Source: Octopus vulgaris (Eukaryota). From it: DNA of 64,000 bases. Made by a program: the position numbers and the translations under genes. This document shows, piece after piece, positions 23,301 through 60,000 of the stretch. The notes under the pieces were generated by a model, which did no database searches, was not told the DNA's origin, and worked only from the letters and a program-made list of their open reading frames with translations. How positions within the stretch are numbered: position 1 is the stretch's first letter; each line of letters begins with the position of its first letter. The DNA is taken from the NCBI GenBank assembly GCA_951406725.2, contig OX597828.1, forward strand, positions 51,832,001 through 51,896,000, given 5' to 3'.

Positions 23301-24980
23301 CAATATTACGTTGGCAGACGATCTGACATACGAACGACTTGTAATGTGTGAAACAGCAGCTGCCGGATTAAGGTAACTTTTATATACTGACACAAGACAT
23401 CTGGAAATAAAATAGGATTTTCTTTATAAATACACGAGGAATAATATTTATTTAGAACCCTATGCTTTGCCTTAGTTAGCTGTCTTTGTAAGACATTCCT
23501 TTTGTATAGGATTGGAGAAAAATTAACATATTTACGTGATTCCATAAATTGTGATAAATACGTTGATGCGTGGTTATCAAAAAGTCCACCTACATGCAAA
23601 AAAATGTCAAAAAATTTATTTAAGTACTTGAAGGAAAGTGAATATACTTTATGCTTTACCATATATTTTATGCTTTACAGCAGAAAAATTTCGGATGAGC
23701 AAATGTTGCAAAATTGTCAGAGTGTCTGCAAAAATGTGTTATTCCTTGTTCGATTGTACAGATATAAAGTTAATGAAGCAAAACAACCGATAGTTTTCTG
23801 CTATTTTTAGTTTAAAACCTAAACTTTATAACCTCTTGATAACCACTCATTTAGAAGGAGAGAAATTACGTATATATACACAAAGAGAAATACACACATG
23901 TACATACATAAAAAACACACACACACACACACACATATATATATATATATATATATAGCATTGATACGACTCTTGATCTGTCTCTTTCTCTCTCTCTCTC
24001 TCCTCCCTTATTCCCCTTCCTTTCTGTCCCTCTCCATCCGTCCCCCCTTCTACGTTTCTCTATCTCTCTCACCTCCAGTCCCCTCGATCTGTCTCTTTCT
24101 TCTCCTCCCTCGTCCACCTTCTCTCTCTTTTCATCTGTCCCTTTCTCCTGTCTTTTGTTCTCACGTGACCGCTAGCCACTGCTGAGCCCTCTTTTCGTTC
24201 CAGCAGTCGTTGAAGCAACACGTATTTGTTCGTCTCCCTGCGGCCATTAGGCACAACTTCATAAACCAGCCCCAAACTCAACTCGTCCTGTCGAAAGACC
24301 CTTGTCCTACGTACTGGTTTTGTTTTGTTTCTTATCTTTACCGTTATTGTTTTTACGTTTTTGTATTCTTATTGGTGTCACGTATTCTGTATTTTTGTTC
24401 GTGTACTTCGTTCGTTTTCCGTCCTCGTGTTGTATACATTCGAAGCTTTTTTCCAGGGGATCTAATGCGCTTGGCTTAGATTTCCCTTGGCGGGCTGCCC
24501 AGATCGGAGCAATCTCAAGATTAATCAGCCGAAATTGCGAAGATGATCTGGTTCTTGACTGATGACTGAGGGCTTCGAATGTCCCGTCCTGTGGTTCTTG
24601 TGTCGTCTCTTTGGTGTTTCATGTTCTTGTCCATGTCTGTAATTATTTTTATTTTTACTGTTTACATATATATATATATATATATATACATGAATATATG
24701 CATGGGTGTATAAACATACTTATATGCACAAACACACACACATATATATATGTATGCATATATATATATATACTAATATATATATATGTATGTATGTATA
24801 CACACACACACATATATATATATATATATATATATATACATATGTACATATATATATACATACATACTGGCTGTTTTTATATGCGGAATAGTATAACACA
24901 TTATTTTGATATATATATATATATATATATATATATATATATATATAAATAGATGAGTGTATTTTTATCTTGTTAAAAAT

Positions 24981-25070
24981 TAACATTCCTGAGGAAAAGA
25001 TTGCATTGTTTATACCATTTATTCTTTTAAATAATATCAGTGGAATTTTCGAAACATATGTCGAAAGTAA
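24981..25070 (+). ncRNA. Type I hammerhead ribozyme-like motif (stem II closing pair mutated)
   Basis: CTGAGGA (24989-24995) - stem II AAAGATTGCATTG/CAGTGGAATTTTC - GAAA (25051-25054) - CATATG - TC; short stem I ttc/gaa. Confidence 0.7.
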
Positions 25071-25817
25071 AAATATTTGATTACACCTGCGTTAAACTCC
25101 ATTTATTTATTCATATATATATACAGAGTTGTGTATGATTTTACTGCAACACGTAATGTGTGTGTGTGTGCCTGTGGGTATTTTCGAACATATTTATTAT
25201 GTGGGTATTAAATAAGTGAAGTAATGTCTAGCTTTGCAGTTACGTAATAAAGTAATATAGGAAATTAAGAAAGCAAACTAATGACACAATGACCAGTTGT
25301 CGGTTTAGGTTTTTGGTTGAGCAGCGCACATGAAAGAACTGGCGTAAGATGCTTATACTGATTGAGGGAGAGAGGAAGAAAGAGAGGGAGAGAGAAAGAG
25401 GGAGAGAGAAGGAGAGAGAGGGAGTGGGAGAGAGAGGGAGAAGGGGAGAGAGAAAGAGAGAGAGAGAGAGGGGAACATCAACAGACTCATTCGTAGACGG
25501 ATAGACTGATGCATAGGTAGATAGATAGATAGAAATATAGATAGATAGATAGATAGACAGATGGATAGATAGATAGATAGATAGATAGATAGATAGATAG
25601 GTAGATAGATAGATAGATAGAGAGATTGATAGATAGATAGAGAGATTGATAGATAGATGGATAGATAGATAGATAGATAGAATGCTTGCTTAGATATACA
25701 CTTTCATAAGCAGCTATATACATATATATATATATATATATATATATATATATATATATATATATATATATATATATAAATGAAAGATAGAGTCGAACGA
25801 CGATTTAACAAAATTCC

Positions 25818-57001: not shown

Positions 57002-57097
57002 CTATTTCTTCCTGAAGAGAAAGACACAATATGGTCTCCTTATTCAATCGGAATTTGGTAAATTGTGCCTTTCGAAACACGTGTAGAATGCAATAAA
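57002..57097 (+). ncRNA. Type I hammerhead ribozyme in right arm
   Basis: CTGAAGA (57012-57018), stem II GAAAGaCACAAT/ATTGTGcCTTTC, GAAA (57074-57077), palindrome CACGTG, GUA triplet ending at 57085, stem I ttc/gaa, AATAAA at 57092. Confidence 0.82.
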
Positions 57098-60000
57098 ACG
57101 ATTTCTGTTCAATCTTCGTTCAACTCCATTTCTTCAATTCACTAATAATATATATATATATATATATATATATATATATATATATATATATATATATATA
57201 TATATATATGCATATATATATGTATATATATACATATATATACGTATATATGTCGCTATTAGTTGATACATTGTGGAAGGAATTTCTCATAGCAGATGTC
57301 TCACATGCTTCTCTGACATGTACATAGAATTTTCAAATCTTATGCATACCTCACACAAATATTAGTTCTACATACCACCTACTGTGTCTATCCGTGCGTG
57401 TGCATGCCTGCAATTTGATAACACCTCCTTACTAATTAAATACCAGCTAAAGAAAGTGGATATCTCTCAAGCACTTATGTTATGTAGACCTAAGTTATGT
57501 ATATATTTATATATATATATATATGTGTGTGTGTGTGTGTATGTGTATGTGTGTGTGTATCGTGTGTATCGGTGGCGATTTTCTTGCTCCGTCTTCCCTT
57601 TTGACTTTTCTCTATTTCTGAAGAAGCCTCTTTCCTTCCTTCCTGAGCGTCTGATAATAGAGTACTTGTACCATGTCCTCACGTTATTGTTCTTTTCTTG
57701 TTTGTTATATGTATACTTACATTTAGACATACATAGAAACATATCTATCTATCTATCTATCTATCTATCTATCTATCTATCTATCTATCTATCTATCTAT
57801 CTATCTATCTATCTATCTATCTATCTATCTATCTATCTATCTATATACATATATATATATATGCATAGATAGACAGACAGACAGACTGCTAGATAGATAG
57901 ATAGATAGATAGATAGATAGATAGATAGATAGATAGATAGATAGATAGATAGATAGATAAACAGACAGACAGATAGATAGAGATGCAAATGTTTGGTTAA
58001 TGAGAAAGACCGAGAATGTTTATTGATCACTACAATCGTTTCGACTTATATAACATCGATCTCTCACGCGTGGAATATATATATACGTGTGTGTGTTTGT
58101 GCTGTGCGTGTGTTTATGTATATATATGTATATATAGATATGTGTGTGTTTGTTTGTTTATAGAAGTGTGTGCATAAATACATTGCAATGCTTTATATAT
58201 AATCTCCATTTTCCTCTAAAGCCAATGTGTGACGAATCAATCTCGTAATAAATATTACGTTACCTCTGCCTCACGTCATGGACGCATCTCTCTCCCTCTT
58301 TTTGTTCCTCTCCCCTTGTCACTCCTCACCTTATTTTCTTTTTTCTCTCTCCTTTTCCTTTCTTATCTCTTTCCATTCAACTAATCACGTTAAAGCGTTA
58401 TAATTACATTCCCTCTACCTTACGTCATGGACGCTTCTCTCTCTCTCTCTGCTGCAATCACCTGAAAGCGTCACCGATGGGATAATTAACGGAATGAAAA
58501 GCAGAAGCATTGGAGGATAGTACAATACGATTCAAAATCGTAAGATTGTGGTTTCGATTCTTGGTCCGGGTGGCGTGTTGTGTTCTTGAGTAAAACATTT
58601 CATTTCACGTTTCTCCAGTTCACTCAGCTGCCAAAATGAGAAATTCTGCGGAAAACCGGTCCTTATGGCTCCAGAAGGAAACATTTATTTTATTGTTTCT
58701 ATATAACAGAATACAGTATGATACAATGATATACAGTATAAGTATCCTCATTTTTACTACGATGTAGTGCCGAAGTCTATTAGTGTTACTCTCTTTGAAT
58801 TCAGAATTCACATACCAGTTGCGCGCAGGAAAATAACAATAAATACTTATTATATATCTAATCAAATGATTAGCATCCGCAATTCTAAAATGGACACAAG
58901 ATATTTAAGCTATTCAGTAATTTATCATTTAAAACAATGTTTCATCTATTTGCCATGCTTCACCACCTGGAGACGGTCCTTGAAATATGTGAGTAAATAT
59001 GCATGCTATAATCATTTTACGTAGGTAAATATGGACGATGAAAGAAAATAAAGATGTATTGATAATAAAGAAAAAGTTTGGCAGAGATCTAGGCATGACC
59101 TTCTACGGAATATGGAGAAGTGCAGATTATTCTATGAAGGTAGAGTATACTTTTAATATGAGGACACCAATATATGTTTGTGTATGTGTATTTTTGAGTG
59201 TATGCGTTGACTTTTCAACGTAGATCTATGTTTGTACACGCGTAAGTAATTAAACGCGAAAATGCGTGTTGCTGGAGCCAATGTTGTCCGTTTCTGCACG
59301 TTGGGTACTATCTCATTTACAGATGGAAGTGCCGTAGGAGATGTATATTTTCTTGCTTAAATTTAAGCACAAAATCTAATTTCTAGTACAACATTACGAA
59401 CAGTGCAAAAGTAGATCACAATTTTCCCCAATACACATTAATCCTACTTAACACGTTTATGTTCAGAGTTTCATATTCCAAAGATAACCAAGATATGATT
59501 ACGCTTTGAGAGTGCTTTTTATCTTCTGGACTTGTTATATTTTAGCGGAATGAAAATATGGGCCGTCAGTTAATATATATATATCAAAGATTGAACATGC
59601 TGAATGTTCTTATTGAAAGCTCTTCTGTATTAGGCATGTAAGTTCCTCTTTATAAATATTCACACATGTACATTGATGTGAAATTCGTGAATATTTTTGG
59701 ATTATTCAACTCTCTTTTACTAGGAAATAGTATGGTACTTAAACAGCAGGGATTTGTCTAGGCTGGTGTGATTTACCACGGTAAAAGACAAAGACACTAA
59801 ATTGCAAACTCCATTTTACTGTTCCACTGGAGAACGGCTAAAGATTCGAAAACTTTGAGACAAATCAAGTCCTGTAGTTTAATTTTGAATTAGGAATGCT
59901 GGGCAAAGCTGAGCACTGGCGGGAAGTTTATCTTGTTATGATTTTTCTTTATACGCATGTATTTATATATGTGTATGTATTGATCGCTGTTACTTTTAAA

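Follow-up and report, generated by a model that had tools for sequence, protein, structure and literature searches.

Three Penelope-like insertions with hammerhead motifs

We analysed a 64,000-nt stretch of the Octopus vulgaris genome (assembly GCA_951406725.2, contig OX597828.1, positions 51,832,001 to 51,896,000 of the forward strand; hereafter the window), for which a preliminary description had reported four hammerhead ribozyme motifs with a long stem II. The host genome is 2.8 Gb in size and rich in microsatellites. All four cores are present where they had been placed, at 24989 (+), 25899 (−), 55740 (−) and 57012 (+), but they provide three independent families and not four, because the last two are the arms of one insertion, a single 640-nt inverted repeat with 99% complementarity. 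The motifs therefore represent three separate insertions, of family A (24989), family B (25899) and family C (55740/57012), each of them a 5′-truncated copy that preserves the 3′ end of a Penelope-like element (PLE) of high copy number (Table 1). What had been taken for a free-standing family of RNA cassettes is thus a set of 3′ pseudo-long terminal repeats (pseudo-LTRs) of PLEs, which we name Hydra-type on the grounds given below.

A strict scan, which required the core, pairing in stem II, a palindrome of 6 nt and UH, returned three matches in the window, while 200 block shuffles gave 0.01 on average; it missed the 24989 copy because A there replaces the family's G10.1. That copy has also lost most of the stem I 5′ strand and is probably impaired; in the left arm of the family C insertion, a T at position 1.1 breaks the first stem I pair of the 55740 hammerhead. 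The sites previously singled out for the mapping of RNA ends (25062, 25827 and 57085) are H17 bases. As described, (TA)n follows three of the four copies, directly in each case, while the fourth first has a tail of ~155 nt. DNA searches of the genome yielded 2,057 (A), 2,070 (B) and 996 (C) candidates, and all three families are dispersed repeats; 40 candidates were scored per family, and the best 30 of the 40 scored for family C were at 100% identity.

Table 1. Parts of the three PLE insertions in the window.
Family	Feature	Positions	Strand	Details
A	Inverted 3′-tail end joined to 5′-truncated copy	24947..24985	−	Reverse match to tail end of natural copy L060; L057 and L061 have the same layout
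A	Hammerhead	24986..25062	+	Core 24989-24995; stem II 24996-25050; then GAAA, stem III; H17 = 25062
A	Stem I 3′ strand through first 3′ end (about +50), then (TA)n	25063..25113	+	
B	Insertion, ~165 nt, 5′-truncated, within (TA)n	25778..25941	−	
B	Hammerhead		−	Core 25899-25893; stem II 25892-25839; stem III 25834-25829; H17 = 25827
C	Tail, ~150 nt	55451..55600	−	Same kind as 5′ UTR start of full-length copies
C	Left arm	55601..56466	−	Endonuclease C-terminus 56466-56323, 3′ UTR, core 55740-55734, H17 = 55667
C	Right arm	56473..57151	+	3′ UTR; core 57012-57018; stem II 57019-57073; stem III 57078-57083; H17 = 57085
C	First 3′ end of right arm, near +62, then (TA)n	within 56473..57151	+	

The parent elements

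Upstream of family C hammerheads lies a 3′ untranslated region (UTR) of ~600–690 nt and then an intact open reading frame (ORF) of 895–904 aa (loci L090, L091 and L205–L217). Inspection by eye found the motifs RWL, SDKT, FDIASFYPSI, PMGSSDS and YRDD, a long serine/asparagine (S/N)-rich linker, and a GIY-YIG-like C-terminal region (VYQC..YVG / CNLC / RCPHW); the nearest ESM Atlas clusters (0.95–0.98) carry GIY-YIG, RVT_1 and HTH_animal. An intact ORF was seen for family C alone, families A and B being known from partial endonuclease ends, which are homologous (~42–53% identical) and stand 5′ of the hammerhead in 5/20 family A loci and 2/20 family B loci. Four of the 13 intact family C copies have the direct layout hammerhead – 5′ UTR – ORF – 3′ UTR – hammerhead, the two hammerheads being 3,622–3,657 nt apart.

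The elements have the organisation of endonuclease-containing (EN+) PLEs: a single ORF, combining reverse transcriptase (RT) and a GIY-YIG-type endonuclease according to the family C motifs and Atlas neighbours, and partial tandem pseudo-LTRs with an inverted 5′ copy and an optional tail. Judged by motifs, the window families fit the Hydra type, with DKT (as SDKT), no CCHH, CxxC (CNLC), CxH (CPH) and (TA)n flanks, and the family C motifs match those of Hydra-1_Obim by eye. Two results count against this assignment: Pfam searches with the family C ORF were blank, and the RWK motif and CxCX5C linker of the Hydra clade are replaced in family C by RWL and by a linker with a single cysteine. A sequence search of PDB with the same ORF gave one chance match (E 0.23). 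A metagenome scan of 103 candidates yielded one locus, L184, a Hydra-type element that does have RWK and CNCRKPSSC, and with which the family C ORF shares 40% identity over residues 208–471. Because of the RWL and the degenerate linker in family C, the name ‘Hydra-type’ is used here for a derived lineage.

In L090, residues ~620–760, lying between RT and endonuclease, form an S/N-rich insert of ~150 aa, and the zinc finger of the linker is degenerate. Despite these features family C is young and still inserting into (TA)n, and family A is without the long insert. At least 14 genome copies have an uninterrupted 899-codon frame, many with an equal endonuclease score, marking a recently active subfamily.

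In each of the three families, the 3′ junction of copies with (TA)n falls at one of two positions, +46–66 or +198–218 from the cut site. The longer ending adds a tail of ~150 nt equivalent to the start of the 5′ UTR, which is often found inverted at the 5′ end, as at 24947-24985 of the window. The tails of A, B and C (window 55451-55600, − strand; L090 ~4240-4400; L066 and L045) share TTTGCTACC-NN-GGTA, and in family C the sequence GGTATCGGTTAAA, after the GGTA motif, is complementary to the 13 bases just before the ATG and encloses the second 3′ end. Motif and complementary pairing together are a candidate RT-binding or initiation structure.

Structure and covariation of the hammerhead

The motifs have the core of a type I hammerhead, with CUGANGA and GAAA, a G10.1–C11.1 pair and an NUH site. 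Sixteen of 27 sequence clusters were compared, anchored on the core without alignment, the other 11 being near-relatives of the rows kept; the core was fixed by the search pattern, and stem I lay outside it. The first pair of stem I is nevertheless kept in 16/16 families, by five pair types, and stem I pairs 1–4 are paired in 57 of 64 cases, compared with 33.7 when partners are shuffled (0/20,000). The core is thus flanked by an open stem I that covaries, as expected of type I. The stem had been thought weak, but measures 6 bp in family A and 4 bp, an internal loop and 9 bp in family B; in family C, 3 bp stand beside the core. It looks weak in the window because the 24989 copy is 5′-truncated inside stem I and the 55740 arm carries the T at 1.1. 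The AATAAA-like word reported after the core is there; in family B it is accounted for as the 3′ strand of stem I rather than read as a poly(A) signal.

Stem II spans 49–66 nt in the 16 families examined, lengths for which the 40–66 search window selects; in the present motifs it comprises 11–13 bp that include a mismatch, and also an internal loop and a predicted hairpin at the apex. The long paired stem proposed earlier holds, whereas its long loop is not open, folding of single sequences producing an asymmetric internal loop topped by an ATTC/GAAT hairpin. Pairs 2–6 are paired in 60/80 cases, compared with 35.4 after shuffling, across 16 families of which seven belong to one related group. 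In an alignment of 14 related subfamilies (A1, omitting L137 and L147, in which truncation has replaced the 5′ flank), 90% of 320 cells were paired, 8/23 pairs changed on both sides, and there were 22 double-change cells compared with 9.4 (0/500 shuffles), while slid controls were 30–49% paired. Of five measures, three exceeded every one of the 500 shuffles. RNAalifold recovered 11 stem II pairs, five with double changes, and predicted neither stem I nor the apical hairpin. A second alignment (A2) was set aside, its stem II being too divergent.

A constrained, PLE-type hammerhead with a long stem II, as the preliminary description supposed, is thus borne out by the covariation of stems I and II across families; the same check gave little for the apical hairpin, which was 81% paired with one double change. 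Further points weaken the case for constraint. Beside the relatedness of the seven families, the 14 subfamilies are related to one another, two of the five measures fell within the shuffles (pairs with double change, 61/500; further pair types, 396/500), and only 9/16 families have a stem II insert that is more stably folded than its shuffled versions (z ≤ −2).

It is possible, if on the whole unlikely, that the long arm is a neutral extension, made of A/U-rich insertions in loop II that are only required not to disturb the proximal helix. Spacer lengths in the genome run continuously from ~12 to 66 nt, with unrelated sequences, the distal part of stem II folds poorly in 7/16 families, and the apical hairpin hardly covaries. 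Against this, both sides have changed among stem II pairs 8–12, at a distance from the core (columns 34-72 and 35-71), and lengths cluster at 49–66 nt in the 16 families, subject to the selection by search window already mentioned. Neutrality of the extension could coexist with cleavage of the kind proposed below.

Abundance in the genome

With stem III given as CA-NN-TG, the genome contains 10,594 matches at spacings of 40–66 nt (reversed-pattern control, 5) and 229 at 9–39 nt (control, 4). With stem III left free, the same pattern finds 14,525 long forms at 40–66 nt (control, 195) and 5,774 short forms at 8–34 nt (control, 310), so that size-limited descriptors and Rfam overlook most of the hammerheads of this genome. 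The Rfam comparison proposed earlier gave no hammerhead match for the window motifs, at E ≤ 10 for 56960-57140 and 25780-25940, nor was there a hammerhead among the 150 of 208 matches listed for the whole window; Rfam misses them because one of their arms has roughly double the length found in the published relatives consulted.

The long-spacer set holds many unrelated stem II sequences, and intermediate lengths (31 and 42–45 nt) are present. An upstream, same-strand piece of Hydra-like ORF was found in 3/40 long-arm loci, most copies being short, and the parent clade is therefore tied to only some long-arm families of the genome, most having none assigned. The region of the family C hammerhead is covered by contigs of four runs, drawn from three studies and labelled as four different organisms, a result that speaks to presence only.

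Long-stem-II hammerheads also occur once per unit in non-coding tandem arrays of ~535-bp units (L168, at G000:C1:16524500-16531100; L170, L173 and L139–L141), with a stem II of 49–50 nt and stem III ACAATTGT; (TA)n lies on their flanks, and the 5′ copy is inverted. These arrays are retrozyme-like, with PLE-type insertion. An abundant family (L204) has an intermediate stem II of 31 nt and a 9-nt stem III, and another family, in tandems of ~353 bp, has short-stem hammerheads.

A model for cleavage and its alternatives

The role of PLE hammerheads in vivo is described as an open question in the accessible parts of several accounts (PMC8557442, PMC7761336, PMC11167929). For the families of the window, we consider it likely that these are type I hammerheads in the terminal repeats of three Hydra-type PLE families, which cut as dimers and do so slowly or under some form of gating. 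Cleavage itself is predicted, and is likely; its dimeric form, the formation of circles and help from protein are the parts that we infer. According to a published model, tandem hammerheads cut as dimers, the products circularise, and more than a unit is reverse transcribed (PMC4209133, PMC6765202, in the parts consulted). In the present case, two hammerheads in a tandem transcript would pair through their self-complementary stem III and cut out a unit RNA of 3.6 kb, which would likely be circularised, and the element's RT, starting at either of two sites that lie downstream of the ribozyme, would copy this RNA into (TA)n DNA. The long stem II would be a tolerated but selected extension of which the proximal 11–13 bp matter. 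Its length puts the customary contact between the terminal loops of stems I and II out of reach, and an internal mismatch 6–7 bp from the core may stand in for the contact that loop II normally makes with stem I.

Pairing of dimers through stem III is plausible on energetic grounds and from the literature. The central dinucleotide of stem III is self-complementary, G-U allowed, in 72/74 matches (tandem copies counted singly) and 15/16 families, and the self-duplex is calculated at −6 to −10 kcal/mol, compared with +2.4 for the monomer hairpin. The self-complementarity reported earlier thus stands, while CATATG, given as the family A form, is a variant in the window: most family A copies have CATGTG, self-complementary via G-U only, and CATATG is lacking in 17/20 loci. 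The two 3′ ends of families A, B and C match two RT start sites reported for a PLE of Anolis (PMC11167929, in the part available).

Tandem copies offer a view of the template. L213 consists of 1.88 units and an inverted arm, and L216 of 1.67 units in tandem; their paired units differ at 1 and 0 of 2,400 sites, respectively, and have in common 5 and 2 private variants that none of the other 13 rows shows, whereas the closest sister insertions differ at 7–13 sites. In both, the upstream unit is cut inside the ORF, a form that unequal crossing-over between pseudo-LTRs would not produce. Such tandems of identical units fit a circular template.

Several observations weigh against this model, or at least against efficient cutting. 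The same tandems, only two in number, also fit a template jump or a source tandem of identical units. No 5′-truncated copy starts at the cleavage site in family C (0/34 loci among 100 of 104 matches listed, collapsed by eye; the nearest truncations in that set were at +2 once and +3 three times) or in family B (0/7 loci), and none of 150 arms in local loci does so, in a count not deduplicated and biased to long copies; these tests mostly see only (TA)n junctions. In the Anolis PLE, the one such element tested in vitro, the hammerhead was dispensable for insertion and needed protein in order to cut, and RNA-seq gave no reads ending at the hammerhead site (PMC11167929). Moreover RT starts downstream of the cut site, so copies with an intact hammerhead derive from RNA that was uncut or had been rejoined there; because this applies to every insertion that keeps its hammerhead, cutting is probably slow or gated.

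A more specific version, in which dimeric hammerheads free 3.6-kb circular RNAs and the long stem II is a distinct gating module (a tertiary contact made by the internal loop, or a site bound by the element's own protein), the commonest hammerhead form in the genome, common to autonomous elements and their non-coding parasites and invisible to Rfam, seems doubtful to us. It is improbable, in turn, that the fold is chiefly a protein-binding or folding signal, or that cutting is so rare that retrotransposition relies on linear tandem transcripts left uncut, the long stem II serving ribonucleoprotein assembly. Such a role would suit the lack of truncated copies starting at the cut site, the retention of the intact motif in insertions, the ribozyme mutants of the Anolis PLE that had no effect on insertion in vitro (PMC11167929, part available), and the Naiad PLEs, which thrive without canonical hammerheads. 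What it leaves unexplained is that the core, G10.1–C11.1 and the core-adjacent stem I (in five pair types) are kept across unrelated families as cleavage requires, the core being fixed by the pattern and stem I not, and that one motif of this kind is found in each unit of the ~535-bp non-coding tandem repeats.

Cleavage in the 5′ pseudo-LTR might instead serve translation, providing an uncapped RNA with a leader of ~270 nt before the ORF. The cut site does lie ~268 nt before the ATG in tandem copies, and in fungal viruses cap-independent translation is made possible by the cleavage of type I hammerheads (PMC13725137, in the part available); after cutting, however, the long stem II would stay on the upstream piece unless the RNA were circular, and non-coding retrozyme-like units bear the same long arm, so that we regard this as very unlikely. 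Two other origins were rejected for the window copies: that of retrozymes (non-coding tandem monomers), all three families lying behind endonuclease coding sequence, and that of Naiad elements (whose ‘half cores’ are 35–50 nt apart), because the endonuclease is C-terminal.

For the question of what PLE hammerheads do in vivo, family C is a ready test system because it is young and has many intact 895-aa copies and full hammerhead–ORF–hammerhead tandems. Its tandems with shared private variants offer a genomic route to testing the circular-template model on many more copies.

Other features of the window

An old remnant of a related PLE RT lies at 33895-34200 on the − strand (29% identity, E 7e-7), and ORF fragments at 11261-13045 and 62558-63142 resemble proteins of non-LTR retrotransposons. 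A 184-bp tandem repeat (2.7 copies) at 27937-28434 is presumably like a short interspersed nuclear element. At 17211-17291 a long imperfect hairpin scores 57 bits against a microRNA model, under the gathering score of 98.

Comparison with known systems

That Hydra PLEs contain hammerheads is already known, and one octopus family, Hydra-1_Obim, is among those published (PMC8557442, as far as its available text goes); the long stem II is the part for which we found no published description. No long-stem-II PLE hammerhead in animals appears in the literature searched, with longer examples possible in supplements of the 2014 and 2020 papers by Cervera and in other PLE hammerhead reports, and an octopus repeat paper mentions no ribozymes in its main text. 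The window families share with Hydra-clade PLEs a single ORF with RT plus a GIY-YIG-type endonuclease placed C-terminally, DKT, the lack of CCHH, and CxxC and CxH near the C-terminus, as well as (TA)n targets, inverted 5′ copies, a type I hammerhead near the 3′ end and a palindromic stem III (PMC8557442, same parts). They differ in a core-to-core spacer of 53–59 nt, compared with ≤26 nt in 26 Hydra rows counted by eye, in a tail of ~150 nt rather than the 30–40 bp described for PLEs, in an element length of ~3.6 kb against generally <3 kb, and, in family C, in RWL for RWK, the degenerate linker zinc finger and the S/N-rich insert of ~150 aa (all relative to the accessible text of PMC8557442). 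The metagenome element L184 has an 18-nt spacer and a 6-bp stem II with a tetraloop.

With PLE hammerheads as described in the consulted part of PMC4209133, the present motifs share the type I topology, G10.1–C11.1, a palindromic stem III favouring dimers, many dispersed truncated copies, and opposite-strand pairs 100–700 bp apart. Helix II has 6–8 bp and a short loop there, whereas here it has 11–13 bp that contain a mismatch, together with an internal loop and a hairpin at the apex, and even the ‘long’ helix II of viral type I hammerheads is of 6–8 bp (PMC13725137, part available). A long spacer also occurs in the PLE-X1 elements of spike moss, measuring ~54 nt in PLE-X1_sMoe, where the hammerhead is marked as a departure from the canonical structure; unlike the window families, these are endonuclease-less plant elements, known as single families with a 35-nt loop on a 9-bp stem, and neither genome-wide dominance nor covariation is part of their description in the text available (PMC8557442).

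Poseidon PAc of Anolis (PMC11167929, again in part) resembles the present elements in having two RT start sites 3′ of the hammerhead, copies with and without a tail, and AT-rich targets. It belongs to another clade, and its ribozyme overlaps the ORF start, whereas the hammerhead here lies ~270 nt upstream and the tail spacing is ~150 nt. Animal non-LTR retrozymes, finally, also contain hammerheads of type I and have been proposed to pass through a circular RNA intermediate (PMC7229834; bioRxiv 10.64898/2026.07.22.740005; both in the portions accessible), but the window copies, unlike those non-coding tandem monomers, are the ends of protein-coding PLEs.

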